Assembly: GCA_963817915.1 (NCBI GenBank)
Contig: CAWFQL010000006.1
Span: 32,001 to 96,000, forward strand
DNA from: an uncultured candidate division Zixibacteria bacterium
GTDB lineage: Bacteria > Zixibacteria > MSB-5A5 > UBA10806
Length of the DNA stretch: 64,000 nucleotides
Direction of reading: 5' to 3'
Below the pieces are notes generated by a model. That model had not been told where the DNA came from. It searched no databases and saw only the letters and a program-made list of their open reading frames with translations. The position numbers and the translations under genes were made by a program. Positions within the stretch are counted from its first letter, which is position 1. Every line of letters starts with the position of its first letter. Shown one piece after another: positions 12,290 through 48,421 of this stretch.

Positions 12290-12291
12290 CG

Positions 12292-30532: not shown

Positions 30533-30766
30533 GCGGTTAATCTATCAGGTGAAAAAAAATAAATCAATCAAAAAATATTCGCTACGAATCACGTTTTAAT
30601 TTGGCTATGCGCAATTTGCGTATAGCGGTCAGGGCAAGCCCTGACTCGCAATGAAATAAATCAATCGAAAATTTGAATGCGGGGCCGGAGATGGGTTTCC
30701 GATTTGGCTGAAAATGCGTATTTAGTAAGACGCAAAATCTCGCGTCTCTACCGTCATTGGGCCAAT

Positions 30767-30802
30767 AAAAAAGGCGATTGGGCTCTGCTTCCCAACCGCC
30801 TT
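30767..30802 (-). terminator. Intrinsic terminator
   Basis: AAGGCG.TTGGG-loop-CCCAA.CGCCTT with a T-run on the minus strand, after 30824. Confidence 0.65.
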
Positions 30803-30823
30803 GAAAAGAAACTTATAAGGGGA

Positions 30824-32083: not shown

Positions 32084-32231
32084 TTTTTGCCTCCATTTTT
32101 GAAGGTTAGAGGTGCTTAAAATCACGACAAATCAATTTCTGATAAATTATGATATATTTGAAAAATATTGTCAAGGGAAATATTGATGAAATTGGTCATT
32201 TTTAATTTTTTTCGGCTTATATTAATAAAAA

Positions 32232-32994
32232 CTAAAACTTATACCCCAATCCGAATTTCAGCGAAATACCGCTGAGGTTGACATCCATGCGATCCTGTAC
32301 AACGCCGTGGTCAATTCGCCATTCACCGGAAACTCGCATATATCGGAATTCGCTATTCAAAAATATCCTGGAGCCTAATGGCGTTTCAAATCCCGCAAGT
32401 ATATGAGTTTCGACAGCATAATCTCTGGCATATTTTGCCAGGGGAACTCTCGGACTTCGCTGGTAATAGTTGTCAAGAAAAGCTCCGGTTACAAAGGCCG
32501 CCTTCCATGTCGCGATATAGACCCCCGTGCCGATTCCGAAGTACGGCATTAATTTCGAACCCGAATTTCTATGATGATAAATAATGCTGAAATCTACTGG
32601 AATAATTTCTAAACCATTTTTGTAATATTGGTATCCATTTGATGTCATAATATGATCGTTTCTGAAACCTGATTCAATCCTCATTTCGAAATTCGAAATA
32701 TAATAGCCTAGATATCCGCCAATGACGTACGATCCGCTCGTTCTATCCGAGTTTCCAAAATAAATATACTTCTCTTCATTTTGATTATTCAGCGGGGCGA
32801 ACATGCCGCCCTGCATGCCGAACGTAAAATGAGCTTGCGCCGGAAGCCGCGAATATTGTCGCAATTATTAATATCATTGAGCAGTAAAGTAAAACCCTGT
32901 TTGCCGTGTTGGCAGGTCTCCGTACCTGCCACGGCCAGGCATCTGGTCGGGTGCGGAGACCCGACCACACACTATTATTCTTATTATTTCTCAT
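32232..32994 (-). CDS. Outer-membrane beta-barrel paralog 7, with in-frame REP insertion and one frameshift near 32840
   Basis: ATG 32994 with GAGGGG RBS; removing one base gives IFAASAQAHFTFG, matching the neighbour's FANSAQAHFTFG; ends KFGLGYKF. Confidence 0.8.
32906..32970. repeat. Double-hairpin REP family copy (GTGGCAGGTCTCCG.ACCTGCCAC / GTCGGG..CGGAGACCCGAC)
   Basis: Other copies at 37446-37511, 59768-59833, 59884-59949, 61832-61897, 61985-62050. Confidence 0.9.
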
Positions 32995-33005
32995 CTTATC
33001 CCCTC

Positions 33006-33701
33006 TCAGAAATTATATCCAAATCCGAATTTTATTGATGTTCCGCCGAGGCCATTCTTATTTCGATCTTGATAGGCGGTGCCATTCCAAACATCATTTT
33101 TTGTCAGCCAACTTTTATATATATGAGAATGTTTCAATTCGCCGCTGAAGTAGAATTTTGAACTAATCGGCATTTGAAAACCCGCAATAAAATTGGCTCC
33201 GACGGGATAGGAAATGCTTTTGGTTTTCCAGTTTGTGCCGTCGATATCGCTACGCTCTCGTTTCCAGGACGCTTGATTGATACCTGCCCCAACTCCAACA
33301 TAAGGCTCAATATTCTTATTTCGAATTCTTATATGATAGATAGCATTGAAGTCGAGCGTGATAACCTTAAATTCGTCCTCGGTATAATTGTAGATTGTAT
33401 TGACACTACTGGAAACAGTATTTTTCATTCCGCTTCCGATCCTTAATTCAAAAGCCGAAATACGATATCCCAAAAATCCCGCAATTTCATAGGTATTGCC
33501 GAATACATTCCGTGATTCCAACGGGGGCAGATTGGGAGGTATAACCCATTGGTTAACCGGCCTTTGGTCAACCTTTTGATTGTTTGGGGCAAAAATTCCG
33601 CCCTGCAAGCCGAATGTAAAATGAGCCTGTGCGGAATTCGCGAATAGGAGTGAGACTAGCATAAACGCCAAGCAATAAAAAAATATCCTCTTATTTTTCA
33701 T
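33006..33701 (-). CDS. Outer-membrane beta-barrel paralog 6
   Basis: Signal peptide, FGLQGGIFAP, PYVGVGAG, GGTSIKFGFGYNF. Confidence 0.85.
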   Translation of the reverse strand: MKNKRIFFYCLAFMLVSLLFANSAQAHFTFGLQGGIFAPNNQKVDQRPVNQWVIPPNLPPLESRNVFGNTYEIAGFLGYRISAFELRIGSGMKNTVSSSVNTIYNYTEDEFKVITLDFNAIYHIRIRNKNIEPYVGVGAGINQASWKRERSDIDGTNWKTKSISYPVGANFIAGFQMPISSKFYFSGELKHSHIYKSWLTKNDVWNGTAYQDRNKNGLGGTSIKFGFGYNF

Positions 33702-33714
33702 CTATAAACTCCCT

Positions 33715-34389
33715 TTAGAAACGGCGTCCCAATCCTAATCTCAATGATGCTCCGCCGATGCTGATATTATTGGCCCGTTCACGAATGATGTTATCAGCTA
33801 TTTCTAATTTCCAATCGCTTGAAATATAACTATATCCAAATTCGCTGCTGAGATAGAAATTGTGGTTGAGAGGAAATTCACACCCCGCCAGGAAATGAAT
33901 ACCTATCGGATAAGTGGTACCTTTCAAAATAGTAGCGCCTTCGTAATATTGGTCAAGGAAGTCCCGCGATTCTGCTTTCCAATTCGCCACATTGAGTCCA
34001 GTACCAAAGCCAAGATAGGGCCGATAGTTTTTATTCTGTAATTTCATATGATAGATAAAACTGAGATCAAAAGAGACTACTTGAAGAATATTTCTTTGAA
34101 AATTCGTATATGAATTTCTCAGCTTCTTTTCCGTAACACTTTGCCTTGTGGCCGATTTAATTCTAATCTCAAAATCATTAATATAATATCCGCAATATCC
34201 CCCAAGTTCAAATGCTCTTCCAAACCCTCCGGTCCAACTTTCGACTTGATCCTGAATTGGCCAATTTTGCGGCATAAACATCCCGCCCTGCAAGCCGACT
34301 TCGAAGCGGCTGGGACCGGCAATGGCGAATGATGGCAAAGACGCAATTATTGCCGCACAGAATAATAATGATGCTATTCGTTTCATCAT
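33715..34389 (-). CDS. Outer-membrane beta-barrel paralog 5
   Basis: ATG 34389 with AAGGAG; GLQGGMFMP, PYLGFGTG, GGASLRLGLGRRF. Confidence 0.85.
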   Translation of the reverse strand: MMKRIASLLFCAAIIASLPSFAIAGPSRFEVGLQGGMFMPQNWPIQDQVESWTGGFGRAFELGGYCGYYINDFEIRIKSATRQSVTEKKLRNSYTNFQRNILQVVSFDLSFIYHMKLQNKNYRPYLGFGTGLNVANWKAESRDFLDQYYEGATILKGTTYPIGIHFLAGCEFPLNHNFYLSSEFGYSYISSDWKLEIADNIIRERANNISIGGASLRLGLGRRF

Positions 34390-34399
34390 ACTCCTTGAA

Positions 34400-35122
34400 T
34401 CAGAACCTGTATCCAATCCCGAATCGCATTGAGGTGCCGCCAATAGTAATTTTTATTCGATCTCGAACGGTATATAGGTCACCGCCCCATGGAGCAGGTT
34501 GAACCGTATATTTTATCTGCCAGTTTGCCGATACTCTGGTAAATTTAATATCTCCACTCAAAAATATTTTGGAAACCAAATTCCATTCGGCTCCGGCAAT
34601 TAAATGAGCCCCAATCGCCTTGTCCTCGTACGATTGGGCTGCCACTGGGTCAATGACCTGTAAAAAATCGCCATGGGGATCATTTTGCAAACTTTTGATA
34701 ATCCCGGTATTCCATTTTACCCAATAGATCCCTGCCCCGATTCCGATATAAGGCTCAATCTTCCCGATAAAATATTTGGAGTGGTAAATCGCGCTCAACT
34801 CAAAAGGAATAATTTTAAAAGTATTTAGTGATCGAGTATTATTCCATATTTCCGCCTGGAATTTATCTCTCCTGTATCCCGACTCTAATCGCATTTCTAT
34901 ATCAGAAAAATAATATCCAAGATAACCGCTGATATCATCTGTACTTCCCAAACCGTTCCAGTTTCCGAAAATAGATAGCTGATTATCGGCCTGGTCATTT
35001 TGCGGCATAAACATCCCGCCCTGCAAGCCGATTACGAAGCGGCTCGGGCCGGAAATCGCTAATGATGGCATAGACGCAATTATTGCCGCACAAATTAATA
35101 ATGATGCTATCCGTTTCATCAT
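34400..35122 (-). CDS. Outer-membrane beta-barrel paralog 4
   Basis: ATG 35122; GLQGGMFMP, PYIGIGAG, GGTSMRFGIGYRF. Confidence 0.85.
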   Translation of the reverse strand: MMKRIASLLICAAIIASMPSLAISGPSRFVIGLQGGMFMPQNDQADNQLSIFGNWNGLGSTDDISGYLGYYFSDIEMRLESGYRRDKFQAEIWNNTRSLNTFKIIPFELSAIYHSKYFIGKIEPYIGIGAGIYWVKWNTGIIKSLQNDPHGDFLQVIDPVAAQSYEDKAIGAHLIAGAEWNLVSKIFLSGDIKFTRVSANWQIKYTVQPAPWGGDLYTVRDRIKITIGGTSMRFGIGYRF

Positions 35123-35132
35123 ACCTCTTGAA

Positions 35133-35858
35133 TCAGAACCTGTATCCAATCCCGAATCGCATTGAGGTGCCGCCGAGACTGACTCGAATCGGCTTTCCGT
35201 AATCGTCTATTTTGCCATTATCGTCTTTGAAACTCCAGCTGCTCGAAATATAACTATACTTGATTTCGCCGCTGAAGTAAAGCCTCTGATTTACCGGAAC
35301 CTCGCATCCCGCTCTAATATGGACTCCCAATGGCTGGGAATTGCCTTTTACCTTTTGATTTATAAAGTCTTCAGCGTGCGGATATGAAGGATCGTTGATA
35401 TCCCCGTAATTTGGATTCGCATATGATAAATTATGTTGCCACGACGCAAAATTTATCCCGGTTCCGAATCCGAGATAAGGAATAATTTTGTTATTTGAAG
35501 TATTAAAGTGGCAAATAAGGCTGAGATCGATCGAAGTTACCTGAAGTCTATCCTTTCCATCACGCACAAATGAATTAAAATGAGAGTAATCAGATTTAGA
35601 ATTGGCCCATTTCTGAGCGGCCTCTAATCTTAATTCAAAATCGGAAATATTATAGCCAAGATAACCATCCAATTCATATGATCTACCGAAACCGCTCCAA
35701 TAATCCAGATAACCTGACATCCCTTGAATTGCCCAGTTCTTCGGCGAAAATAGACCACCTTGCAATCCGAATGTATAATTACCTGGCTTCGAATTCGCGA
35801 ATGAGGGAAGGATAATAACTATCGTCAAACAATATATTAATAATTTGCTTCTTTTCAT
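35133..35858 (-). CDS. Outer-membrane beta-barrel paralog 3
   Basis: ATG 35858; FGLQGGLFSP, PYLGFGTG, GGTSMRFGIGYRF. Confidence 0.85.
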   Translation of the reverse strand: MKRSKLLIYCLTIVIILPSFANSKPGNYTFGLQGGLFSPKNWAIQGMSGYLDYWSGFGRSYELDGYLGYNISDFELRLEAAQKWANSKSDYSHFNSFVRDGKDRLQVTSIDLSLICHFNTSNNKIIPYLGFGTGINFASWQHNLSYANPNYGDINDPSYPHAEDFINQKVKGNSQPLGVHIRAGCEVPVNQRLYFSGEIKYSYISSSWSFKDDNGKIDDYGKPIRVSLGGTSMRFGIGYRF

Positions 35859-35871
35859 TCCTTCTCCAATA

Positions 35872-36510
35872 TCAGAGCTTATACCCAATCCCAAATTTCA
35901 ATGATGTGCCGCCCAAGCCGAAAACTTTTCCGCCATCGTAGCTATGAGTGCTATCTCTGAATCTTATATAGCTATAACAAAGCTCGCCACTAAAAAATAA
36001 GCTCTTGTTCATGCTGATATCAAAACCACCCAAAATGTGGAAACCTTTCGGAAAATGCGATTTGGCCGCCGTCAAATTACGCCACATGTCCTGCTGATTT
36101 CCATCGGGAATAATTCCGCTGACGCCCAATCCTAAATAGGGGACCCATTTTGGATTCATCATTCGAAAATGATAAATTGCGCTTAAATTCAATGTAATTA
36201 ATTGATAATGTCCTTCACCACTTAGGCGATACCCAAATTGGTTATAAAGCCTAACAAAGGTATCATCCTTTCTCAGGAATGCTGACGCCCTTACCTCTAT
36301 GTCACTTTCCCTGCATCCAAAATATAGTCCATACTCATAAGTGCCGCTGAAATCTTGCCCAAGATTGGAATAATCTGACGCGGCCCAATTCGGCGGAGCA
36401 AAAAAGCCGCCTTGAACTCCAAATGTGAACGATCGATCCCCGGCGATTACAGTCGAAGCAAGGAATAAAATCGGAAACAAAAGCCAATATATCGGTTTGA
36501 CTAATTTCAT
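35872..36510 (-). CDS. Outer-membrane beta-barrel paralog 2
   Basis: FGVQGGFFAP, PYLGLG, GGTSLKFGIGYKL. Confidence 0.85.
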   Translation of the reverse strand: MKLVKPIYWLLFPILFLASTVIAGDRSFTFGVQGGFFAPPNWAASDYSNLGQDFSGTYEYGLYFGCRESDIEVRASAFLRKDDTFVRLYNQFGYRLSGEGHYQLITLNLSAIYHFRMMNPKWVPYLGLGVSGIIPDGNQQDMWRNLTAAKSHFPKGFHILGGFDISMNKSLFFSGELCYSYIRFRDSTHSYDGGKVFGLGGTSLKFGIGYKL

Positions 36511-36523
36511 TTATTTTCCCTTC

Positions 36524-37198
36524 TCAGAATCTTCGTCCAATCCCGATTTTCAGAGATGTGCCTCCCAGGCTGACATTATCCAATTTTTTCAATATGGAGC
36601 CGGATGAATATCGAGAATTGAATTTCCAGGTAGTGGAAACATAGCTGTATTTGATTTCTCCATTTATAAATACATTGTCATTAATCGGAAATTCGATTCC
36701 TCCGAGAAAATGAATATCCAAGGGGTATGAAGTACTCTTTGTAGAATTATTATCATAATAATAATCGTGATATTTGGGCTTCCATTGAGCGAAATTGATA
36801 CCGGTTCCAATGCCTAAATAGGGGGCTACTTTCGAGTATTGATATTTTATATGATATATATAGCTAAAATCAAAAGAGACTACCAGAAGATCATTCCTAT
36901 CTATTTTAGGTCCCCATGGTATCTCTGTTGAGAAAATAGATCGACTCTGCCTCGTGCCAATTTCGAACCTTAATTCTGAATCGGAAAAATAATGGCCCAT
37001 ATACATTGCGAAATCGAAGGCGCTGGTATAGCCTGTCCAGACGCCAGGATATCTCAGCTCTCCCTGCATTGGCCAATTTTGAGGCATAAAAATTCCGGCC
37101 TGCAAACCGAAAGTATTTCGGTTATTATTTGCGCTGGCGCCAAATGTCAGCAATATCATGAGCGCGAGAGTCCCCGTTATAACCTTAAATGCCTTCAT
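36524..37198 (-). CDS. Outer-membrane beta-barrel paralog 1
   Basis: FGLQAGIFMP, PYLGIGTG, GGTSLKIGIGRRF. Confidence 0.85.
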   Translation of the reverse strand: MKAFKVITGTLALMILLTFGASANNNRNTFGLQAGIFMPQNWPMQGELRYPGVWTGYTSAFDFAMYMGHYFSDSELRFEIGTRQSRSIFSTEIPWGPKIDRNDLLVVSFDFSYIYHIKYQYSKVAPYLGIGTGINFAQWKPKYHDYYYDNNSTKSTSYPLDIHFLGGIEFPINDNVFINGEIKYSYVSTTWKFNSRYSSGSILKKLDNVSLGGTSLKIGIGRRF

Positions 37199-39131: not shown

Positions 39132-39349
39132 ATGGAATCTCCTCTCAAACTGATTATTGATTCTGAGACGGTGATGATTATCACCGTTTTATCGTTATTT
39201 GTTTCCACGCAATCCAAATCTAAATCCACTCATCGCTCCTAAACTAACGCGTACTGTTCGATACATATAATTATCATGGGATACGATGTCAATGAAAAAA
39301 GAAAATTAGAATAGTTGCTAATAAGGTAAAGAGATTTGGCCAAAAAGAG

Positions 39350-39525
39350 TGCAGTCGGGTCGCCTGACCCGACTGCTCAATTGGTAAAGTCGTCGGGTGG
39401 GGCCACCCGACGACACTTTATTATCTATTTGCGGGCAATGCTATTAATTGGGGGTAGGCCCGAACCCCTGCGGTTCGGGCTCTTCAAAGGCGGAACCATC
39501 CGCCCGCGGCGGATTCCGCTCTACA
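39350..39525. repeat. REP-like palindromes between gltA and the capsid module
   Basis: GCAGTCGGGTCGCCTGACCCGACTGC, GTCGTCGGGTGGGGCCACCCGACGAC, GTAGGCCCGAACC..GGTTCGGGC. Confidence 0.7.
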
Positions 39526-39531
39526 GCTATG

Positions 39532-39924
39532 CTATTGATTGGGCTTGGAGGCGGGAGCCATCGAAGTCTCCCCTGATTTTCTCGATACCGCCGCACGGGC
39601 TGCTCGGTCGGCGACCTCTTTGCCTACCCCGGTGATCTCGATAATCTTGTCAACAGCCCTATCGAGCCAGACCGACCAATGGGAATTGGGGAATTTCAGC
39701 TTGAAATAATCGGTGACATCATCGGCTATAACCAGAATATACTCAGCGACTTCCCTGTTTTGCTTGACCTGCAGTAACGGCAGGATTTCCTTCTTAATCA
39801 GAAATCCGAGATAGACCATTAAAATTGCCCCTAAAGCCGCCAGCGATTTTTCAGTCAATAGGCCGCCAAGCCATGAAAATATGCTGGCGTTCAAATGGGT
39901 CGGATAAAATGCGAATAAAAACAT
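39532..39924 (-). CDS. Holin-like membrane protein (N-terminal TM plus amphipathic helices)
   Basis: LAALGAILMVYLGFLIKK TM segment, helical tail ending ARAAV; last gene of the phage-like module; LL-H holin-like architecture is an inference. Confidence 0.5.
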   Translation of the reverse strand: MFLFAFYPTHLNASIFSWLGGLLTEKSLAALGAILMVYLGFLIKKEILPLLQVKQNREVAEYILVIADDVTDYFKLKFPNSHWSVWLDRAVDKIIEITGVGKEVADRAARAAVSRKSGETSMAPASKPNQ

Positions 39925-39948
39925 GATAAATCTCCTTATGGTTTGAAA

Positions 39949-41412
39949 TTATTGTAATTGCCAACTTGATAAATCTGGCACGGCCACTTTCGATTTGTAG
40001 ATCACTCCCGATGGATATTCGATCGTGAAGAGATATTTGGACGAGGTTTTAGAAAGTAGAGAATTGGGGATTAAATCGATTTGCCAGTAACCATGAATAT
40101 CTGTCTGGGTAGTTTTCTTGAATGGCGTGATTATAACATCATCGTATTTGACCGGCTGATATTCCGATGGTATCTCGACAGTTACAACGATATTTGCCAG
40201 GCTATCGCCAACTATATCATATACTCGGCCATAAACACGGCACAGGTTCGGCGATGGTGGATCGCCGGGATTGAAATCCGTAATCCAGAGGATATCAGTC
40301 CCTCCACCGCTAACAACGTTGATAGTATCCAGATCGGTTTGGATGTAATTATTTGCCCGCAATGCCACTACATAGCTGCCGGGATCGAGCTCGGTTATTA
40401 GCCGTCCATTTGAATCTGTCTGAAGGCCGGGCACCTTTGTGGAAGTCTGAGCGAGATTTCTGACAGTAACAGAAACGCCTTCAAGCGCGGTGGTATCATT
40501 ATCAAAAACATAAAGAGTCTCGGCCTCGCTTCCGCTGCCGCTAATTGAAAGCGCCGCGATATCATCCTTGATATTTTGGTTATCGCCGTTCCCACCGGCA
40601 TAGGCCCCAATTTTAGAATGCAGATCGATTGACGACCCTTTCCATCCGAGCGAAGCCATTATTGAGTCAACCCTGGATGTCAATGATGGCGGGATCGTGG
40701 CCGTGCCGCCGTGATTATCGAGCATGGTTTTGAAATTCGGCTTCACATCCAAGGAATCTAAGCTCGCTGAATCTGGATTCGACAAAACGGCGTTCCTGGC
40801 GTCGAATGTCAATTTGTCGGTTTTCGTTTTTATTGCTGTAAGATCTGAATTGGAATTGATGTTGACGTTGTTAATTACTCCGCCGACATTGCCGGTTGTC
40901 ATAAAGACCTGTGAGTCAGCAAGCGAATAACCAGATTTGTCATAAACATATTTCGATCTGAGATAAGACGCTCCGGTCGATCCGCTGTCCGATGTCGCCA
41001 GAAAATCCTCTATCGGATCGGAATTGACATAATAGCTGCCATAATGCATTTGATGGGTGTCGGTGCCGTTATTGTTATCTACCAATAACGCCCACCAGGT
41101 GTAAGCCCCAAGGTCGCCATTGGAATTTGACGCCTTAAGGCGATATTCAAACATCAATGTTCGTGGATAAGTTGAATTCAGATCATAGCCGGAAGCCCCC
41201 GTGAGCGTATCGATATTAAAATCGGTTCCGCCGTAAGCCTGAACAATATAGGCCGTATCCCATGTCGTATACTGCCGCCCAGAGCTGTCGATAAGGCAGA
41301 ATTGTATAACGAGGGTATCGTTTTTCTCGCCCGAGCCATTATCGAAAATAAGCCCTGCCCTGGCTGAACAAGCTGAAAGCCAGATTATAATTGTAATCAA
41401 TAATTTATTCAT
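39949..41412 (-). CDS. Signal-peptide protein with C-terminal transthyretin/carboxypeptidase-regulatory-like domains, virion-protein-like
   Basis: MNKLLITIIIWLSACSARA; QTDSNGR..LDPGSY and TQTDIHGYWQIDLIPN motifs. Confidence 0.6.
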   Translation of the reverse strand: MNKLLITIIIWLSACSARAGLIFDNGSGEKNDTLVIQFCLIDSSGRQYTTWDTAYIVQAYGGTDFNIDTLTGASGYDLNSTYPRTLMFEYRLKASNSNGDLGAYTWWALLVDNNNGTDTHQMHYGSYYVNSDPIEDFLATSDSGSTGASYLRSKYVYDKSGYSLADSQVFMTTGNVGGVINNVNINSNSDLTAIKTKTDKLTFDARNAVLSNPDSASLDSLDVKPNFKTMLDNHGGTATIPPSLTSRVDSIMASLGWKGSSIDLHSKIGAYAGGNGDNQNIKDDIAALSISGSGSEAETLYVFDNDTTALEGVSVTVRNLAQTSTKVPGLQTDSNGRLITELDPGSYVVALRANNYIQTDLDTINVVSGGGTDILWITDFNPGDPPSPNLCRVYGRVYDIVGDSLANIVVTVEIPSEYQPVKYDDVIITPFKKTTQTDIHGYWQIDLIPNSLLSKTSSKYLFTIEYPSGVIYKSKVAVPDLSSWQLQ

Positions 41413-42658
41413 TGAAATCTCCTATTACTAATTTCCTCCTTCTGAATCCTGAGCAAGTGGCAGATGAATATTTCATATAGATGCTATATTTCCTATTGCC
41501 CCCGGCGCCTGTGCCCATCGTAATATCGAAAGGAAGGGGGTCTGCAATATCTGTCTGGCTCGAGTCCGAGCCTGCGGTTCCGTTATCATAATAAAGATAA
41601 AGATTCAAATCTTTGGTGGAGCATTGGAGTGTGAGCCAGATTGTATCCTGACAAACCAGAGACTTACTAACCAATGAAAACCCCTGCCATGATGCCGATG
41701 TATTTGAAATAGTCCTCACCCCAGAACTGTCGGCAAAAGTCGCATTTACAGATCCGCCTTTATAGGCTGCGGCTGAAGCGCTGGGGTATGGAGTAGAGCT
41801 TGCCCGCACGTAAGCGAAAATCGAATCTGCGATAGCTGTCTCAGGCAGAATAAACCGGCTTGCCATTTTACCATCCGCCTTGAAGCTCTGAGAAGATGCG
41901 CCTGCTGATGTATAACCGACTGTAGGGTCGATCGTAACAGGAAAAACTGCCTGATTCAAAAAGCCGGCGGGGACATCAATGGAAAGGATGTTATTGGATA
42001 TTTTCAGATCGCACCAGGCGGAATTTCCAATTGAGTCGAATGCCTTCGGCCTGTAGATGTGAAAGGCTTTTGCATAAATCTTACGATCTTCTGAATTTGA
42101 GGTCGAATAGGCCGCATAACTCCCCACTACGCTATCGGGTCGATTGGCTCCACGAGCTATTTCGTATAGAGTCAGCGGCGGCTGATAAAATAATTCCATG
42201 TTGGACACATCAATTGGAAAATTAAATGAATTGCAGCCTGGGAGCGAATTTAAAACGATTTCCCATTCAAATTCGACAGATGATTTCCAATACCATCGAT
42301 AATAGCCGCCATTAAATTTCGAAATGATCGTGTCTAACGACACATTTAGCTGCTCCAATACTGAATTTAATGCGGGCAGAGTCTGTAGTGGCTTTGCAGT
42401 GAATTCGTGCGGCAATTTTATTTCGAAAAACGAATTATCCGGCCCATTGATGGAAAATAATTGCGGCGCCGATGATGATGCGTCATTGATTGATATGGAC
42501 ATTCCTTTTACTGAATCGCCATATGAATAACAATTTCTATCACCTTCAGATGTTTTTTGCCAATGATTGCTTAGCGGACTTTCCACACCTGCGTAAAGAT
42601 GTGCACTTCGAATGAGGATTAGGCTGACAACACCAATAACAAGTCTGTTTAATTGCAC
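41405..42658 (-). CDS. Signal-peptide protein with a phage-structural-like domain
   Basis: GTG 42658 with AAGGAG RBS (the track's longer N-terminus overlaps the next gene); FYQPPLT..RPDSVVGSYA..KAFHIYRPK..FPVTIDPT. Confidence 0.6.
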   Translation of the reverse strand: MQLNRLVIGVVSLILIRSAHLYAGVESPLSNHWQKTSEGDRNCYSYGDSVKGMSISINDASSSAPQLFSINGPDNSFFEIKLPHEFTAKPLQTLPALNSVLEQLNVSLDTIISKFNGGYYRWYWKSSVEFEWEIVLNSLPGCNSFNFPIDVSNMELFYQPPLTLYEIARGANRPDSVVGSYAAYSTSNSEDRKIYAKAFHIYRPKAFDSIGNSAWCDLKISNNILSIDVPAGFLNQAVFPVTIDPTVGYTSAGASSQSFKADGKMASRFILPETAIADSIFAYVRASSTPYPSASAAAYKGGSVNATFADSSGVRTISNTSASWQGFSLVSKSLVCQDTIWLTLQCSTKDLNLYLYYDNGTAGSDSSQTDIADPLPFDITMGTGAGGNRKYSIYMKYSSATCSGFRRRKLVIGDFNE

Positions 42659-42671
42659 GTTATTATCTCCT

Positions 42672-43496
42672 TCACGCGGAAGCCGGGCTATTGAATGATC
42701 CCAGGCGGCCGGCAAATTTGGAGAGGATATTGTACGCTTCTTTCTTGTACATGTCGGAGAGAGCGGTCCAGGATCGTGCCTCGTTGCCGCCATCGGTCTT
42801 GCCTCTCGATGGCGAAATAGATTCCATGGCGCGGATTCTGCAGATAATCGCGACCGACATGTAAGTCTCTGCGGTAACAAGCAGTCGGTCAGCCGATTCC
42901 CGATAAACCTCATCGATAAACGAGAGCACCTGATCATTGGCCTCGGCAATCGCGTTTTCAATAGAAGCATCATCAAGATTTCCATATTCGGTTGTGTAAT
43001 CGACCTGAACCCATTGGCCGGATTCTATCGCTCCGCCCGAACGGCGCTTAAGTGTTCCTGCCTGATATTCTATGTCATAATCGCTTCCGCGCTGGTAAAT
43101 TCGGTAGTTAAGATACCAGACGACTATCGATCCAGCCGCCGGAATTGAGCCTGATGCGATTCGCATAATCGTCCCCTGAATGTAGTCGATTTGAAAATCG
43201 ATATTTTCGATATAGATTTTCGAAAGAGAGCTATTATTGGCGGCGACCACCGTATTTGGAATAATCTGATTATGCGACAGCGCAACAGAATCGGATGAAG
43301 CAAAACTGATATTCTCTTCATTCGGTTCATTCTGCTCTCTGGCCTTGACTCGTTCAGATTCCGGCAAAATCATCCGCTTTTCCAGTTGGCTGGAGTCATT
43401 GGCATTCAATTGGATTTTTTCATCATAAATTTTGGCGGAACCGATATGATGGTCGAGGATATGTTTTTTGACTATTTCCTTGGTTGTAAATGGCAT
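42672..43496 (-). CDS. Putative head-tail adaptor/head-completion protein with inserted beta repeats
   Basis: MPFTT.E.V start; helical DDASIENAIAEA...YKKEAYNIL; two Y..G.DY.I.Y..G...R repeats; located after the capsid gene. Confidence 0.5.
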   Translation of the reverse strand: MPFTTKEIVKKHILDHHIGSAKIYDEKIQLNANDSSQLEKRMILPESERVKAREQNEPNEENISFASSDSVALSHNQIIPNTVVAANNSSLSKIYIENIDFQIDYIQGTIMRIASGSIPAAGSIVVWYLNYRIYQRGSDYDIEYQAGTLKRRSGGAIESGQWVQVDYTTEYGNLDDASIENAIAEANDQVLSFIDEVYRESADRLLVTAETYMSVAIICRIRAMESISPSRGKTDGGNEARSWTALSDMYKKEAYNILSKFAGRLGSFNSPASA

Positions 43497-43867
43497 CAGT
43501 TCATCTCCAATATTAAGAGGTCAACAAGCGAATTGGATGGTTCTTCTTTCTTGCGAGCGATACGGAATGAGGTAGGTCCGACAGCGCCGAGGATAAAAGC
43601 CCCGATCTGATTTTTGGGAATAATAATTACGAGGGGTTTATTGATTGTCGTTGGCAACTGATTGCCGCGATGGTCTAGCAGGTCGGCAAAATCAACGATT
43701 TGGGAATTGCCGCCGGAATATTCATGCATGAATACGACTCGATTCTCCCCAGATTTATATTCAGTCAGCATCAGGTCGCCATCGAGAGAACCGGCGTCAC
43801 CCCATACGGTATAGTCCCTGATCAACCATTTGCGGTTGCCGGTAAGATAGTCCAATGTTATATTCAT
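43496..43867 (-). CDS. Hypothetical beta-rich protein of the capsid module
   Basis: Translationally coupled on both sides. Confidence 0.7.
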   Translation of the reverse strand: MNITLDYLTGNRKWLIRDYTVWGDAGSLDGDLMLTEYKSGENRVVFMHEYSGGNSQIVDFADLLDHRGNQLPTTINKPLVIIIPKNQIGAFILGAVGPTSFRIARKKEEPSNSLVDLLILEMN

Positions 43868-45303
43868 ACGCCCTCCCTCACCAGAACAAGATCATCGGCC
43901 TTAACTCCAGCGACGATCTGAGAGCCGACCGGTTCAGCGGAAAATCCCAATGTCACGCGCGCCCGCACCCAATAATTATTGGAGTCATCGACCATTCCGA
44001 TCTGCCAATCTGACGGTGTCGATTCGCCATCCTGCCAGAAATAGACAAGAGCATCTAGCGAATCGAAATTGTAGCTTCCGGAAGATGGAATAAATTCCAC
44101 CCAATTCGAGCCGTTAAAATATTCCCAGACTACTGTCCCCGAGACTCCCGCGGTCGAAAGCAGAATGGCCGCGCTGAAGAATTTCGATTGTTTTCCGAAA
44201 TAGATACAATCGTCAATCGAATCGATTAGCGCGGATGATTCGGAGTGAAAAATATCAGCCAGAGTCGGGTTGGCGGCAACGGATGACCTATCTTGGAATT
44301 TTGTCGTACCGAGATTATTGTATAGGATTATCTTATCGAATGCGCCTATCGCGGGAGTATAGTTTGAAAGCGAAAATGATTCGCCGGATTTACCCGCGTA
44401 TCTGGGGATATAATAATTTTCCGCGATAAGCCTGGCATAGAAAATATGCGGAATATTATTCACATATCCGATTTGGGGCGATCTTGCCTGGACAGTCTCG
44501 ACTTCATATAGCCCACTCCAAAAGGAACCGTCATTCTCCTTGAAATAAACCTTATTTTCACCTGAGACTATAAAAACAACGCCAAGTTTCTTTTCAGGGC
44601 TCGGCGCGATATCAAAATCATCATCGATATAATTAGCGCTGTGGATTGCGGTTTCCGCTCCCCATGTAGGACCGGAAAGATCGCAGATTCGATAATTCAA
44701 ATCGGATCTATTGACACAATAAACGGCGTATAGCTTTGACGATATCTGGCAGGCGCCGACATAAGCGTTGACAGCGTAGCCCGAGGAAAGCGCGGTGCCA
44801 AGATCGGCGTCGCCAGTACCCCAGGTCGCGCCATCATCCGTTGACGATTTGACTCGTACATAATAATTGGAATCGAGCGAGGTTCGATGATTAACGAAAA
44901 AACACCAGAGCTTGCTATCGCTGTCTTTGATGACTGTTGGATTGTAGTTGTTATCGACAGCGACTACATTCACTTCGGAACCTGCTGTCCAAACCCCTGC
45001 ACCAAACAACAGCTTCACGAATTTAATTTTCCGGTCGGTATTGGTATAAACCAGATAGATATTGCCTGCCGCATCCATATGCGCCCCGAATGGCGAATCA
45101 TAAACGTCGGTAACAATGGCCTGCGGCGATGACCATGATTGATAGGGGTAGTCGGAATAGACGAGAGCGATCGCAGTCGCCGAGCTCATATACAATGCCG
45201 CAGTCCTCCCCTTGAATACACCCGATGGTATTCGAAGGAGCTTCCGTTGGCAGGGCGACCCGGTAGGCCGGGTCGCTGTCGATGTTGTCAAAAGCTTATG
45301 CAT
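43864..45303 (-). CDS. Beta-propeller (BNR/Asp-box) protein with virion-like C-terminal domain
   Basis: SSTDDGATW Asp-box, W-spaced blades, WEYFNGSNW and YWVRARV motifs. Confidence 0.6.
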   Translation of the reverse strand: MHKLLTTSTATRPTGSPCQRKLLRIPSGVFKGRTAALYMSSATAIALVYSDYPYQSWSSPQAIVTDVYDSPFGAHMDAAGNIYLVYTNTDRKIKFVKLLFGAGVWTAGSEVNVVAVDNNYNPTVIKDSDSKLWCFFVNHRTSLDSNYYVRVKSSTDDGATWGTGDADLGTALSSGYAVNAYVGACQISSKLYAVYCVNRSDLNYRICDLSGPTWGAETAIHSANYIDDDFDIAPSPEKKLGVVFIVSGENKVYFKENDGSFWSGLYEVETVQARSPQIGYVNNIPHIFYARLIAENYYIPRYAGKSGESFSLSNYTPAIGAFDKIILYNNLGTTKFQDRSSVAANPTLADIFHSESSALIDSIDDCIYFGKQSKFFSAAILLSTAGVSGTVVWEYFNGSNWVEFIPSSGSYNFDSLDALVYFWQDGESTPSDWQIGMVDDSNNYWVRARVTLGFSAEPVGSQIVAGVKADDLVLVREGV

Positions 45304-45315
45304 CTATTCTGCTTT

Positions 45316-46422
45316 CTACCAGACCGAATCCAGTATCAATGATGCTTCTTTGATGAATTTGGCGTAGGAGAGGGATTCTGATATAACCGCCTCCTCGATT
45401 TTCTGCTCGATAACCTTATCGTATTCAATCATCAATGGCTGGCTGATGACCTCCTCGATCGCGAATCGATTGTCGAGGCCGATCACGTAATCGGTCGGAA
45501 CTTCGTCGCAACGAATCAATGATGCCCCGAGCGGAGATGTTATCTCGCCATTGGTCTGGAAATTGAATCCGATCAACGGATCCTTGAATTCGGCCAAAGT
45601 CAGAATGCTTCTGATTTTGTCTTTATGGCAGATCAGGATATTGGGTTGATATGGATAGAATTCGCTCCAGAATCTGACCAGGTCATCATAATCAAGAACA
45701 CTGGTGACATCGGTATTGATTACCTGGGCGGAGTTGGAATTGCCGTCGCCGTTGATAATAGTATTGACAATCATGGCGATCTTGTCAGATTGCAGACGAT
45801 AACCGATGTACCACAAAAGCACTTTGAATTGCGCCATCGAACGATAGCGAAGCGCCTTGTAGGATACCTTCAACGTCAACCCGTAATCCTGGATCGTGAT
45901 CGTATTGTTTTGTTCGGTGACATTGACCGATGGAATCATGGCCGCCTCGCCGACCGGCCTGAGCGACAGAGCCTTATCCCCGACACCATAGCCGACATGG
46001 ATCGGTGAATAACGAGACGATGATACATTGGAGCTCGATGACAAGAGCCGTCCCAATTCAGGGCGCATCTCCATGCCTCGTCTGATTTCGCGAAGCATGA
46101 ATTCAGGCATTAATGCCGGCGCGCCGCGATAAAATAACTCGACTGTAACGGGGTTCTTGCCGCCGGTGCGAAGCCCCTTCATTGCTAATTGCCGTTCGAA
46201 AGCGTCGAGCGGCGAGCCGGCCGGGCTGGGATCGAATTCGGGCAGTTCCAGAAGCTCAGTAAGCGATATTCCGCGAGCCTGGGCTTCGAGATATGTATCG
46301 CGTGTGACATCTATCTTCTTCGCGCGAGAGAAATCGACCGATTTCCCTCCGCTGTTTTTGGATTCGCCGGCTGTAGCCATGGCGATATTGAAATCAGATG
46401 ATAACAGTTTTTCAAATTCCAT
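45316..46422 (-). CDS. Phage-type major capsid protein (HK97-fold predicted)
   Basis: 368 aa; LDAFERQL, PEFMLREIRRG, VGEAAMIP, YG..L.VSY.ALR, IINGDGNSNSA, LDNRFAIEEV...IEYDKVIEQ; follows protease and decoration genes. Confidence 0.82.
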   Translation of the reverse strand: MEFEKLLSSDFNIAMATAGESKNSGGKSVDFSRAKKIDVTRDTYLEAQARGISLTELLELPEFDPSPAGSPLDAFERQLAMKGLRTGGKNPVTVELFYRGAPALMPEFMLREIRRGMEMRPELGRLLSSSSNVSSSRYSPIHVGYGVGDKALSLRPVGEAAMIPSVNVTEQNNTITIQDYGLTLKVSYKALRYRSMAQFKVLLWYIGYRLQSDKIAMIVNTIINGDGNSNSAQVINTDVTSVLDYDDLVRFWSEFYPYQPNILICHKDKIRSILTLAEFKDPLIGFNFQTNGEITSPLGASLIRCDEVPTDYVIGLDNRFAIEEVISQPLMIEYDKVIEQKIEEAVISESLSYAKFIKEASLILDSVW

Positions 46423-46456
46423 TATTTTCTCCTTAATGGTTTAAAATTGATATTGA

Positions 46457-46879
46457 TTAATTGAGGATAAGAGTCACATCCGATGTACCATTGACGTCGA
46501 TAACAGTCCCGCGGGCGACATTGCCGCCTGCCGGATCATAACCGGCCAAAACGGGCGCCTGCCTGACAGCACCCGTGCCGCTGACAACCACACGATTGCC
46601 AATTGCGGGTGTAGTAGCCGCTGAAGGCAACTTACAAATTCCACCGATTTGTACAGTGGCTACTCGCTTCCCGTTATCAGCATCGGTGAGTGAAAGATCG
46701 ATAAGCTTGCCCAACAACATTCCGCCGCTGGCTCCTAGCCCGACTTCGTAATTGGCTATGATGGTCACAGCCTTTCCGATATCGGTATCCCTGAGGTCAT
46801 CGACCCCCGCGGTCTGGTGCACCTTGAATGTCGCGGTTAAAAATCCGATTGTTTCCAGGTTTTGATCTCTTACTGCCAT
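46457..46879 (-). CDS. Capsid decoration/cement-like protein
   Basis: 140 aa Gly/Val-rich; DIGKAVT, GKL, ATVQ.GG, G.VRQA; immediately upstream of the capsid gene. Confidence 0.65.
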   Translation of the reverse strand: MAVRDQNLETIGFLTATFKVHQTAGVDDLRDTDIGKAVTIIANYEVGLGASGGMLLGKLIDLSLTDADNGKRVATVQIGGICKLPSAATTPAIGNRVVVSGTGAVRQAPVLAGYDPAGGNVARGTVIDVNGTSDVTLILN

Positions 46880-46917
46880 GAATTCTCCTTTTCTGTTATA
46901 AATTTAGGGTGATATTT

Positions 46918-47163
46918 TTAGCGATAATCTTCTACTGCCAGCAAGGGCAGACGAATTGAACTTTCAGATCCTTTGGTTATCCCTCTGGACTTTTCTTTGG
47001 TCAATTCGGGTCTGAATGATTTTTCTTTTATGTCATTCAGAATGGCAGGCAGAGAATCTAATTTAGATATTATCGCATCCATGTCGAGCTTGCCAGATGA
47101 AAAGCCGTCGGTCAATCCACTTTTGATTTCATTTAGCCTCGTTAAGATTTCATCAAATTCCAA
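46918..47163 (-). CDS. Small helical protein, possibly a scaffold fragment
   Basis: TTG start with AAAGGAG RBS; coiled-coil-like; lies between protease and decoration genes. Confidence 0.55.
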   Translation of the reverse strand: MEFDEILTRLNEIKSGLTDGFSSGKLDMDAIISKLDSLPAILNDIKEKSFRPELTKEKSRGITKGSESSIRLPLLAVEDYR

Positions 47164-47194
47164 TCGATACTCCTTTCATTTGAATAGTTTTTGT

Positions 47195-47500
47195 TCAGTG
47201 ATTTGCTTCGCTTTTTAGAATCGCCTTGTCTTCTTTTGCCAGCACAGTCTCGATAGCAGTCAGCTTACCGATAACCTCATTCTTGAATGTCGAAAGGTCT
47301 TCCTTGGTGGCGAATCGTTCATTGATGACAGATTCCAATCTTGCCAGTCTGACATTCATTTCAGTCACATAACGTTCTTCTGCTTTCCCGGCGAGCTCGA
47401 CCCGCAATCCGGTGTAAATCGCGAAATATCCCGACAAGGCCGCGGCCAGCGAAATCGCCAATGTTATCAAATACTTTATCAATGAGTCTTTCTCGGGCAT
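47195..47500 (-). CDS. Single-TM coiled-coil protein (holin/XhlA-like architecture)
   Basis: TM LITLAISLAAALSGYFAIY then coiled coil with ATKEDL; GAGG RBS. Confidence 0.6.
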   Translation of the reverse strand: MPEKDSLIKYLITLAISLAAALSGYFAIYTGLRVELAGKAEERYVTEMNVRLARLESVINERFATKEDLSTFKNEVIGKLTAIETVLAKEDKAILKSEANH

Positions 47501-47515
47501 ATAAGCCTCACTTCG

Positions 47516-48334
47516 TTAATTAGACTTAATAATCAGGAATGATTCGCTGTTATAATTTGCTATGGCGGCTTGATAGTTTGGTGGATATGCTATCAGCTTC
47601 GCGGTTTTGTTTTCGGCTTTCAGCGGTAGAATGCGAACCAACCTTTTCGATAAATAGGTGAGCGGAATTTCGACAAATCTTGAAATACCGTCGATTTCAA
47701 TTTCGATCTTGTTATCATCCTCGCGAGATAATTTGTCGGTTATGAATGTGCCCTTGACCGAGCCGCGATAGACTAATGATGTTTCCAATACTTGCGTAAT
47801 ACCATTATAGATGAAATGCGCTTTCTCGGCGGATTGGCCTGACGAATAATCGATATCATGCGGGCAACCGCGCATATCCTGGCCGCAGATTGAGCATTCG
47901 GGGAAATTATATGAGAATGATATCGAGCATTCCTTGAGAACACCGGAATCGATTTTGGTCAATAGATCGTCGGGCTCATCGGCTTTAGTTGTCGGCCAAT
48001 AGAAATAGGCTTTGAGCCATTGAACACCATTTTTCTCTTCGATCTCTGCATGAAATGTGCGTGCCAAAGGCGCCTGCGAATGATCATGACCGACTAATAC
48101 GGGCGTATCAATAATCAGGCTTTTCAATTTCGATAAATCCTCTTTTCGAAATCGGCCGCCATGGGAATTGACAAGATTATTGACAACATACATGGCGCGG
48201 ATATTGACATTTTTCGGAGCTACGAATCGCGGCGGCTTGATATTATCGTTAATCAATGACGCCAGATAATTGAGTCTGACATTCGGGCTATCCAATGTGA
48301 GCTCACAAGTAAGCATTTCAGTTAATTTTTCCAT
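47516..48334 (-). CDS. Prohead (capsid maturation) protease-like protein with CxxC...CxH zinc motif
   Basis: ATG 48334 with GGAGGA; PVLVGHDH, IDSGVLKECSISF, CSICGQDMRGCPH, LETSLV. Confidence 0.72.
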   Translation of the reverse strand: MEKLTEMLTCELTLDSPNVRLNYLASLINDNIKPPRFVAPKNVNIRAMYVVNNLVNSHGGRFRKEDLSKLKSLIIDTPVLVGHDHSQAPLARTFHAEIEEKNGVQWLKAYFYWPTTKADEPDDLLTKIDSGVLKECSISFSYNFPECSICGQDMRGCPHDIDYSSGQSAEKAHFIYNGITQVLETSLVYRGSVKGTFITDKLSREDDNKIEIEIDGISRFVEIPLTYLSKRLVRILPLKAENKTAKLIAYPPNYQAAIANYNSESFLIIKSN

Positions 48335-48421
48335 TAATCCTCCATTCTCCACCTCTCGGGGGTTTTCAAACCAAATGCTCATTGAACCAGTTTATGAGAG
48401 TGATAAGGATGAATCCCGACC

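Follow-up and report, generated by a model that had tools for sequence, protein, structure and literature searches.

The 64,000-nucleotide stretch of DNA analysed here (the window), from an uncultured Zixibacteria bacterium, contains an operon for an HK97-type capsid in which two large downstream genes, g9 and g10, begin with Sec-type leaders. Tailed-phage fibres are normally made and assembled in the cytoplasm and have no signal peptide. The locus raises the question of what such leaders do in a head operon, and where the proteins that carry them would meet a particle, if they meet one at all.

All genes of the cluster lie on the minus strand. The first, g1 (47516..48382), encodes a protease/scaffold-like protein of 288 residues, whereas distant relatives reach about 500; it matches phrog_16951 (E = 9e-16) and, weakly, the head-maturation protease family phrog_80 (E = 0.04), and its homologues in two phage contigs (L001 and L046) are placed between portal and capsid. 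The 101-residue product of g2 (47195..47500), in the usual position of a scaffold, has an N-terminal membrane helix with its hydrophobic stretch at residues 10-18 (9-mer heuristic), which is probably followed by a coiled coil, as read by eye from the sequence. Family searches of the window's open reading frames (ORFs) gave no family assignment for g2 and no match for g3 (46918..47163), an ORF call of only 81 residues that is poorly conserved across related loci. The head decoration or cement-like protein g4 (46457..46879), which retains 58-82% identity among related loci, matches phrog_4588 (E = 2e-7) and the head decoration family phrog_122 (E = 2e-4), and g5 (45316..46422) is the HK97-type major capsid protein (phrog_3922, major head protein, E = 5.5e-61). 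The leaderless 479-residue protein g6 (43864..45303), whose synteny is kept in related loci, is weakly sialidase/BNR-like (BNR_2 at E = 1.8e-5, below the cut-off; profile A3 against exo-alpha-sialidase at E = 5.6e-4), which implies a beta-propeller. The conserved 123-residue protein g7 (43496..43867) is syntenic in related loci at 31-62% identity and found no family match in phrog and Pfam/NCBIfam searches. The 274-residue g8 (42672..43496) is adaptor-like by position only: short repeat motifs in its N-terminal half match families of phage tail type, its C-terminal part is conserved, and the matches are to phrog_20240 (E = 2.7e-8), phrog_807 ("major tail protein with Ig-like domain", E = 1e-3) and the tail-tube-type motif NF052337 (E = 2e-10, below the cut-off). 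Family searches of the window's ORFs identified no terminase, portal, tail or endolysin gene in the cluster, and since there are no genes for a tail tube or tape measure, the particle would be podovirus-like or tailless.

The two leader genes belong to this same operon. The 417-residue g9 (41405..42658) starts at a GTG at 42658, and its Shine-Dalgarno sequence AGGAG (42667..42671, minus strand, read directly) lies 8 nucleotides ahead of it, directly after the g8 stop at 42672; an alternative start, ATG-42985, was rejected because the longer frame would overlap g8. The 487-residue g10 (39949..41412) starts at an ATG at 41412 with AGGAG ahead of it and shares 8 nucleotides with the end of g9. 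The last gene of the operon, g11 (39532..39924), encodes a single-pass membrane protein that is holin-like by position only, sits after g10 in related loci as well, and matches phrog_11448 (unknown function, E = 2.6e-3). A terminator-like hairpin at 39351..39376, with an 11-bp stem, 8 GC pairs and a T-run, ends the operon and is the sole long GC-rich one on the minus strand between 39000 and 49200. From the capsid genes to g10 no strong terminator-like site precedes it, and the genes overlap or are closely packed, which bears out the placement of g9 and g10 inside the capsid operon in a preliminary description of this DNA.

Both N termini open with a basic n-region, continue with a hydrophobic core of about 11 uncharged residues (mean Kyte-Doolittle value of 3.1 over 9 residues) and then have small residues followed by Gly, LYA|G in g9 and ARA|G in g10. 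The leaders comprise residues 1-23 of g9 (42590-42658, minus strand) and 1-19 of g10 (41356-41412, minus strand), as called from a hydrophobic-9-mer heuristic, the -3/-1 rule and conservation. Within the window the heuristic flagged g9, g10 and the membrane proteins g2 and g11, and none of g1 and g3-g8. Among homologous ORFs it flagged 13/13 in the g9 family, 27/30 for g10, 30/34 for g2 and 17/22 for g11; the other families gave 0/34 (g1), 0/5 (g3), 7/39 (g4), 1/45 (capsid), 2/42 (g6), 6/36 (g7) and 2/40 (g8). In the g10 subfamily whose mature protein starts with G[LM]IFDN, allowed -3 and -1 residues stand exactly before the motif in all 21 relatives, and in these the leader sequence varies while the mature N terminus is conserved. 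A further 120 of 139 representatives of the g10 family are leader-like, most of the remainder appearing 5'-truncated, and in all but one of 28 related loci the gene directly upstream of g10 bears a leader. For g9, L-Y-A|G can pass as a cleavage site, though a weaker one, and sites of the AFA|Q and SQA|Q types stand in its homologues. The window's g10 leader can also be read as the lipobox-like L-S-A-C, and as none of 20 close g10 relatives has a lipobox ([LVI][ASTVI][GAS]C) at that position, cleavage by signal peptidase I is more likely. By these sequence features the leaders of g9 and g10 are a conserved family trait, and some components of a particle system of viral origin apparently leave the cytoplasm. 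The preliminary description had held that g9 and g10 start with Sec-type leaders and that the capsid, decoration and adaptor-like proteins do not, and both statements are upheld, the former by starts with ribosome-binding sites, the n/h/c architecture and conservation, and the latter by the heuristic.

Relatives of g9 occur in phages. Its AlphaFold2 model (pLDDT 80, pTM 0.78) predicts a beta-supersandwich at about residues 30-252 and a jelly-roll domain like a carbohydrate-binding module at 253-400. In VIA-align the C-terminal domain aligns with chain 9jwb_Z of the cyanophage A4 capsid at a Z of 13.9, and the model as such matches the Bxb1 tail tip (Z 12.8) and supersandwiches of lyases and mutarotases (Z 8-10.7). 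According to the paper on cyanophage A4, gp25 cements the capsid and bears a carbohydrate-binding module, and chain Z of 9jwb is presumably this protein. Patterns built on RPDSVVGSY and GKAFHI, motifs that the preliminary description had likened to structural proteins of uncultured phages, found the g9 core in 185 confirmed viral stretches; the motifs are real and linked to phages. The circular podovirus MW202647 encodes a homologue without a leader (27% identity across residues 111-401) as its last structural gene, followed by a small membrane/coiled-coil protein, an endolysin and a holin; in another homologue (P0090) the core is fused to the baseplate-hub domains PF09931 and PF09356, and two viral contigs (L074 and L096) carry the g9-like gene among the head genes and not at the tail end. 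Where the 5' end is complete, 68 of 79 viral homologues lack a hydrophobic stretch ahead of the matching region, in agreement with the earlier statement that leaders are unusual on such proteins. Across lineages the g9 slot is occupied by unrelated leader proteins of 190-845 residues.

The g10 model (pLDDT 75.9 overall, above 90 in the C-terminal module) predicts a variable beta-sandwich (residues 20-130), a low-confidence linker (135-290) and paired C-terminal beta-sandwiches (295-487), with a mean pairwise identity of 0.55 in the C-terminal module as against 0.30 in the N-terminal domain. The sequence matches CarboxypepD_reg (E = 5e-8). Residues 390-487 align with a neck/neck-fibre chain of cyanophage A-1(L) (Z 10.7, r.m.s.d. 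1.7, 89 residues aligned), the last domain with a Bxb1 tail-tip chain (Z 8.7), and matches of the model in BFVD are to baseplate-J-like and tail or tail-collar fibre proteins. T9SS cargo, abundant in this genome, resembles g10 in having an N-terminal leader, a variable passenger and a conserved C-terminal beta-sandwich; it differs in that the conserved part of g10, of about 200 residues, is twice the length of a sorting domain and g10 has no Por_Secre_tail match (Pfam, E up to 0.1). With an hhalign probability of 2% between the g10 family and five T9SS sorting domains of this lineage or genome, g10 was rejected as type-A T9SS cargo.

The patterns LCRVYGW and D..GYWQ.D, the latter representing a second motif of the preliminary description, located g10-like proteins in five viral loci, two of which were read in context, L051 (IMGVR_UViG_3300033148_004824) and L052 (IMGVR_UViG_3300038466_000012). 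Both belong to real, temperate phages, with integrase, repressor or endolysin genes, and like g10 their proteins have a leader, an "NNS...EDS" N-terminal domain, the C-terminal module and a place in the tail-fibre region; they differ from it in length (802 and 1691 residues, the longer one with a polysaccharide deacetylase domain), and their C-terminal modules share only 25-35% identity with that of g10. In the temperate phage contig L051 the g10-like gene follows genes of the size of a tape measure and a hub; in L052 it lies ahead of the endolysin, where three successive leader proteins stand in the place expected for fibres and no leaderless fibre candidate was found within the 20 kb seen. 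Whether phage homologues also carry the leader thus has a divided answer: most viral g9 homologues do not, and a few phage contigs do, including L051 and L052. The preliminary description's view of g9 and g10 as phage-type virion proteins is supported by the g9 homologues in phage structural modules and by the folds and tail-fibre-position homologues of g10; from sequences and predicted models, both are probably sugar-binding, fibre-like proteins. Their beta-sandwiches are generic ones that occur also in pilins, adhesins and accessory domains of glycosidases.

The cluster is spread across the phylum. The capsid gene is present in 255 of 285 Zixibacteria genomes, almost always as a single copy, including 189 of 198 high-quality genomes (about 95%) and 118 of 130 genera, and g10 is found in 259 of the 285. 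Capsid identity follows host rank, at 75-80% within families, 65-71% within orders and 54-67% within classes, and the same gene order, including the leader protein, g10 and g11, recurs in loci across the phylum. The window's flanks hold citrate synthase and T9SS cargo genes, many of the flanking genes coding for secreted T9SS proteins, and in 14 loci the cluster is followed, at a distance of 2.2-3.3 kb, by lipA. Gene-by-gene annotation for phage lifestyle genes covered three loci, and among the ORFs scanned in the window and the related loci L030 and L012 no integrase or replication gene was found (Pfam, PHROGs). Portal and TerL adjoin g1 in 20 of 44 loci; in this genome the portal and terminase genes lie 31 kb from the cluster, intact and amid host genes. 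A single deletion in one genome (G086) took out g2 through the N-terminal half of g10. Another genome (G073) has g8-g7-g9-g10 with no capsid gene within 13 kb, and two queries found none genome-wide at 84% completeness. The cluster, judged from its genes and distribution, is not a prophage or phage operon but looks like a domesticated, chromosomally fixed element resembling a gene transfer agent (GTA), and full-text literature searches turned up no publication that connects the Zixibacteria to an element of this kind.

We consider that g9 and g10 may be the fibre/receptor-binding-type proteins of a domesticated, phage-derived DNA-packaging particle system. Its gene set, which occupies two loci in this genome, would provide portal, small and large terminase, protease/scaffold, decoration protein, HK97 capsid, propeller and adaptor-like protein. 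Both proteins would be made with a cleavable Sec leader, exported to the periplasm and held in the envelope while DNA-filled heads are built in the cytoplasm. At release, upon a breach of the inner membrane for which g11 is the candidate holin, their conserved modules, the C-terminal tandem sandwich of g10 and the N-terminal supersandwich of g9, would attach them to the heads, and their variable parts would then recognise the surface of a recipient cell, to which DNA might be transferred. We put at about 0.35 the probability that the exported proteins, as fibres or receptor-binding proteins, attach to the heads no earlier than the breach of the inner membrane. Counted in favour of the link to the particle are the shared operon, the co-distribution of g10 with the capsid and the G086 deletion, and in favour of fibre-like modularity the contrast between the two parts of g10 and the exchangeable g9 slot.

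Several observations count against this proposal. No tailed phage or GTA is known to send virion proteins through Sec, and those products of phage late operons that are known to be exported serve in exclusion or conversion and do not belong to the virion. The polarity of g10, conserved at the C-terminal end and variable at the N-terminal end, is opposite to that of most tail fibres; the swapping of the g9 slot for unrelated genes is also typical of accessory cargo; and the folds are generic, with Foldseek TM scores of only 0.1-0.2 for both g10 and g9. The head-module position of the g9-like genes in L074 and L096, the cluster without an identified endolysin, and the retention of g8-g7-g9-g10 in G073, where no capsid gene was found, are counted on the same side.

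The alternative that survives best, though we hold it to be somewhat unlikely, is that g9 and g10 are exported and stay in the envelope of the producing cell, never becoming part of a particle, where they might mask or modify the receptor of the particle or of related phages, capture incoming particles on recipient cells or act as plain adhesins or glycan binders encoded in a late operon. T5 Llp, phi80/N15 Cor and lambda Lom are exported proteins coded beside receptor-binding genes that serve in exclusion or conversion, and with lambda Bor they resemble g9 and g10 as signal-peptide genes among or beside tail and receptor-binding genes. They differ in being small lipoproteins or outer-membrane barrels, whereas g9 and g10 are large, consist of several sandwich domains and have homologues among phage structural proteins; multi-domain proteins of 400-1700 residues are unlike small exclusion lipoproteins, and Pfam and NCBIfam gave no match to an exclusion-protein family. 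The conserved leaders, the folds like those of adhesins, pilins or carbohydrate-binding modules and the cargo-like exchange of the g9 slot would all suit an envelope role. A paper on DGR targets of Bacteroides phages points the same way, describing phage proteins without signal peptides, unlike surface-displayed bacterial ones. Against it stand the mostly leaderless viral g9 family, drawn from phage structural modules, the strong conservation of the g10 C-terminal module together with its co-distribution with the capsid, and L052, where leader proteins fill the place of the fibres.

Considerably less probable is a reading in which the N-terminal segments stay uncleaved and tether g9 and g10, and the head by way of g2 and g11, to the inner membrane, with the particle assembled on that membrane or leaving through it, the envelope-associated, non-lytic idea of the preliminary description. 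Membrane-associated prohead initiation is known from T4, the operon encodes two conserved single-pass membrane proteins, g2 being at the scaffold position, and the absence of an identified endolysin would agree with non-lytic release. The hydrophobic cores, however, have the length of a signal peptide and not of a membrane span, the residues before the conserved mature N terminus of g10 obey the -3/-1 rule in all 21 relatives, the AlphaFold2 models are unstructured immediately past the helix, and neither a lipid envelope nor an extrusion machine finds support in the sequences.

It is very improbable that g9-g11, rather than encoding fibres, are a cassette for lysis or disruption of the envelope, an analogue of spanin plus holin. 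Their place at the 3' end of a late operon, the order of N-terminal hydrophobic segment, lipobox-like L-S-A-C and small membrane protein, and the genes that follow the g9 homologue in MW202647 would fit such a cassette; spanins, however, consist of a small coiled-coil inner-membrane protein and a small proline-rich outer-membrane lipoprotein, unlike all-beta models of 417 and 487 residues, the lipobox is not conserved, and family and structure searches recognised no catalytic domain. An ordinary, possibly defective prophage, with g9 and g10 as unrelated cellular secreted proteins or morons beside it, would account for a window cluster that has no terminase, portal or tail genes and for flanks rich in secreted T9SS proteins, but is largely refuted and just as improbable, contradicted as it is by a single-copy capsid and by g10, each in about 90% of the 285 genomes, by a gene order kept phylum-wide, by the conserved host-gene flank, by the failure to find an integrase, by the phage homologues of both proteins and by the rejection of g10 as type-A T9SS cargo.

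To return to particles with exported fibres, the closest known systems are the GTAs of Rhodobacter capsulatus (RcGTA) and Bartonella (BaGTA). These share with the Zixibacteria cluster a phage-derived head and packaging set of about 14 kb from which integrase and replication genes are absent, fixation in the chromosome with clade-wide inheritance, a division between two or more loci in some genomes and variable fibre-type genes at the cluster end. The Zixibacteria cluster differs in belonging to another phylum, in having no tail tube or tape-measure genes, in that its particles and their transfer of DNA are predictions and in the Sec leaders of its fibre-type proteins. In PMC5026251 the term "signal peptide" appears nowhere but in the methods and the references. 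With the fibres, receptor-binding proteins and capsid-bound carbohydrate binders of tailed phages (MW202647, A4 gp25), g9 and g10 share the distal position in a structural operon, folds of the beta-sandwich and carbohydrate-binding-module type and the combination of a conserved module with variable parts, g9 being directly homologous; they differ in their cleavable-looking leaders and, for g10, in carrying the conserved module at the C-terminal end. The fullest version of the proposal, a Zixibacteria-wide, GTA-like, podovirus-derived particle whose Sec-exported fibres are mounted on the heads outside the cytoplasm and which is therefore armed only at release, is one that we regard as doubtful; the arrangement would be shared by a few real phages, namely L051, L052 and those with some of the leader-bearing g9-like genes.

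If exported proteins do join the particle, this would break the rule that tailed-phage virions are assembled wholly in the cytoplasm. Assembly would take place in two compartments, with adsorption-competent particles arising only at release, and Sec-exported fibres on heads would be an assembly route for tailed particles not described before. Virus-prediction pipelines are likely to label the cluster a prophage in every Zixibacteria genome. Whatever g9 and g10 do, the cluster is a candidate new domesticated phage element in an uncultured phylum; as a candidate GTA-like system it would extend such systems beyond the few lineages in which they are known, and it offers a testable handle on gene exchange in the Zixibacteria.

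Genes g9 (41405–42658, minus strand, 417 aa) and g10 (39949–41412, minus strand, 487 aa), both leader-bearing, occupy positions nine and ten of an eleven-gene operon (39532–48382, minus strand). The GTG start of g9 at 42658 is preceded, 8 nt on its 5′ side, by AGGAG and lies just past the stop of the preceding gene, while g10, whose 5′ end overlaps the 3′ end of g9, starts with ATG at 41412 and also has AGGAG in front. The operon is transcribed in the order g1 (protease/scaffold-like), g2 (a small membrane protein, probably with a coiled coil), g3 (a small protein, role not assigned), g4 (decoration protein), g5 (HK97-type major capsid protein; phrog_3922, E 5.5e-61), g6 (479 aa, weakly sialidase-like), g7 (123 aa, role likewise not assigned), g8 (adaptor-like, by position), g9, g10 and g11 (a single-pass membrane protein), all on the minus strand. 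A terminator, formed by a strong hairpin and a T-run (39351–39376, minus), stands 3′ of the operon. Three strong hairpins fall between citrate synthase and g11 (39164–39414); the one at 39351–39376 (minus) faces another at 39389–39414 (plus), their GC-rich stems are near-identical, and the pair could be a terminator acting in both directions or a repeat element.

The N-termini of g9 and g10 have one or two basic residues, an uncharged hydrophobic core of about 11 residues, small residues and then a glycine. A heuristic that requires an uncharged 9-mer with a mean hydropathy of at least 2.0, beginning within the first 45 residues, was positive for g2, g9, g10 and g11 of the window's cluster and negative for g1 and g3–g8, in keeping with the preliminary description, which saw no leader on the capsid, decoration and adaptor-like proteins (g5, g4 and g8). 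Among homologous ORFs from 45 related loci it was positive for all 13 of g9 and 27 of 30 of g10, compared with 0/34 for g1, 1/45 for the capsid protein, 2/42 for g6 and 2/40 for g8. The subfamily of g10 whose mature protein begins G[LM]IFDN has permitted residues at −3 and −1 directly before the motif in 21/21 proteins, and the leaders of these 21 are dissimilar in sequence; permitted residues and unlike leaders before a conserved start form the classical pattern expected where a signal peptide is cleaved. A g10-family profile search of 1.84 billion representatives returned 2776 members at E ≤0.001, and leader-like N-termini occur in 120 of the 139 new members among the best 150, while most of the 19 exceptions look truncated, as they begin without Met or in mid-leader. 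The Sec-type leaders of g9 and g10 are thus confirmed at the level of sequence by the heuristic, the −3/−1 rule and their conservation across the family, and from them we infer export. Two other routes were considered for g10 and rejected: a lipoprotein, as relatives of the window's g10 do not share its lipobox-like L-S-A-C, and a type-A T9SS sorting domain in its C-module (residues 295–487), an idea that was put to the test.

The structure model of g9 (pLDDT 80, pTM 0.78) places a beta-supersandwich at about residues 30–252, 3′ of the leader in coding order, and a jelly-roll at 253–400. The supersandwich is similar (Z 8–10.7) to domains without catalytic function in polysaccharide lyases and galactose mutarotases. 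The jelly-roll aligns best with a chain from the capsid structure of cyanophage A4 (Z 13.9, rmsd 2.6, 138 aligned), followed by a Bxb1 tail-tip chain (Z 12.8). We infer the A4 chain to be gp25, a protein to which the cyanophage A4 paper assigns a cementing role on the capsid and a carbohydrate-binding module. In the model of g10 (pLDDT 75.9 overall, rising above 90 in its terminal domains), a linker predicted with low confidence connects a variable sandwich at the N-terminus to two transthyretin/CnaB-like sandwiches at the C-terminus. The second of these two resembles a cyanophage A-1(L) chain named by its entry title as neck or neck fibre (Z 10.7, rmsd 1.7, 89 aligned), as well as a chain of the Bxb1 tail tip (Z 8.7). 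The best named matches of the g10 model in a viral structure library are baseplate-J-like and tail or tail-collar fibre proteins. As such folds are common, they indicate the kind of protein and not membership of a family. Foldseek searches of the PDB with both models gave generic sandwich matches alone (TM 0.1–0.2), among them, for g9, low-probability ones to T7-type nozzle proteins, and we do not take such matches as evidence of membership. No catalytic domain was recognised in either protein. PDB sequence profiles gave no meaningful match for g9 or g10 (best E 0.16 and 0.54), none for g8 and a weak sialidase match alone for g6; all cluster proteins fell below the NCBIfam cut-offs, and tblastn of g10 against phage GenBank records returned zero matches.

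Conservation is unevenly spread along g10, with a mean pairwise identity of 0.55 in the C-module but 0.30 in the N-domain (residues 20–130), and the slot before g10 holds a leader protein in 27/28 loci, drawn from differing families of 190–845 aa. Such a design, a constant anchor joined to changing distal parts, is that of fibres and receptor-binding proteins. The reading that we prefer, at a probability of roughly 0.35, is that g9 and g10 would be exported across the inner membrane, would wait in the periplasm and, when the inner membrane opens at release, would attach to heads through their conserved modules. The main rival, which we hold to be only slightly less probable, shares the leaders and has both proteins act in the envelope, for example by masking receptors, capturing particles or mediating adhesion, and never become part of the particle. 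An uncleaved membrane tether with assembly at the membrane, which would correspond to the envelope-associated particle or non-lytic release proposed in the preliminary description, is in our view improbable, given the pattern of cleavage in g10.

Capsid relatives are found in 44 genome loci at 54–80% identity, nearly all labelled Zixibacteria, and in one viral contig at 33%, and the order g1 to g11 is wholly kept in related loci; a chance position of g9 and g10 beside a prophage is accordingly hard to credit. Across the phylum the capsid gene was found in 255/285 genomes, almost always as a single copy (189/198 high-quality genomes, 118/130 genera), and its identity tracks host rank. The genes around the cluster are housekeeping genes, and no terminase, portal, tail, integrase or replication genes were found within the 64-kb window. 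In 20 of the 44 loci, g1 is immediately preceded by the portal and large-terminase genes. In the window's own genome they are intact and lie 31 kb away from the capsid cluster, with host genes around them, in a minus-strand packaging module on the same contig, outside the window (contig positions 111729–115010), that comprises the portal (429 aa), a 202-aa zinc-finger ORF that is possibly the small terminase, and the large terminase (447 aa). Lipoyl synthase follows g10 by 2.2–3.3 kb in 14 loci. Taken together, the missing phage-lifestyle genes, the single copy in most genomes of the phylum, the synteny, the host flanks and the packaging genes make the cluster, known here from its genes, look like a domesticated, gene-transfer-agent-like element. 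A full-text literature search found no report of such an element in Zixibacteria.

The g10 profile matches 259/285 genomes of the phylum, the nearest relative being 48% identical, and g10 is present in 14 of 20 listed capsid-negative genomes. One apparent loss of the capsid gene (G076) is an assembly gap, marked by stretches of N next to g1. G086 (contig C4 150000–169900; locus L139), a genome of 99% completeness, has a decayed copy with a deletion from g2 through the N-terminal half of g10, so that the remaining C-terminal half comes immediately after portal, terminase and g1; G073 is a further capsid-negative case. In the large family f7, most genomes give two separate g10-profile matches and may hold a second gene with the C-terminal module.

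Several features of the surroundings were also recorded. Six loci of the window's family (L004, L005, L006, L007, L012 and L043) have a conserved lipoprotein of about 420 aa, with a Cys in its leader, about 0.3–0.8 kb past g10, in place of which the window has citrate synthase. Just downstream of the latter (29825–37198, minus) is a tandem array of about eight paralogous outer-membrane beta-barrel genes (OMP_b-brl/OmpW-like), each of 210–253 aa and with a leader. Several window genes are apparently split into adjacent or overlapping ORFs (11067–12295, 16869–18241, 18544–21244): RNase_H_2 and an aromatic amino-acid lyase are each broken in two, and the C-terminal domain of a helicase is detached from the exonuclease/DEAD part. 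Such splits point to frameshifts introduced by assembly errors, or to pseudogenes, and call for care with ORF boundaries in the assembly. In a distant relative's cluster (L030, 6314–6715), the large terminase and a long form of g1 are separated by a gene for a peptidase inhibitor of the chagasin family (I42), an odd neighbour for a protease/scaffold-like protein.

The phage-like motifs noted at the outset are borne out for g9, whose core motifs are present in 185 confirmed viral stretches. Whether phage homologues share the leader has a divided answer: mostly not for g9, but yes for g10. Of 80 g9 stretches kept, 79 have a complete 5′ end, and 11 of these 79 have a hydrophobic 9-mer upstream of the match; about six read as true leader-like N-termini (e.g. 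L059, L068, L102, L113, L130), the remainder being unconvincing, and in its typical phage form the protein begins with conserved, hydrophilic residues. The circular podovirus MW202647 has a leaderless homologue as its last structural gene, followed by a small membrane protein, an endolysin and a holin. Membership of g9 and g10 in a lysis cassette, for which such neighbours might speak, is nevertheless very improbable in our judgement. Two other viral contigs hold the g9-like gene in the head module, and one homologue (44% identity, residues 130–259) has baseplate-hub domains fused to the g9 core.

The g10-like proteins occur in two temperate phage contigs. That of L051 (802 aa, with a leader) accompanies a tape-measure-like gene, a minor-tail-like gene, an integrase and a repressor, and that of L052 (1691 aa) has a leader and a polysaccharide deacetylase domain, its gene following those of two other leader proteins and preceding an endolysin. 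More leader-like N-termini occur in genes around the g10-like gene (L052 2198–5549; L051 5902–7542 and 11311–11877), and among the genes of these contigs is one small membrane/coiled-coil protein with a layout like that of g2. The predicted leader is a trait of the g10 family, these two phage contigs included, so domestication alone does not account for exported fibre-like proteins. In this phage lineage, genes at the tail end may generally encode exported proteins.
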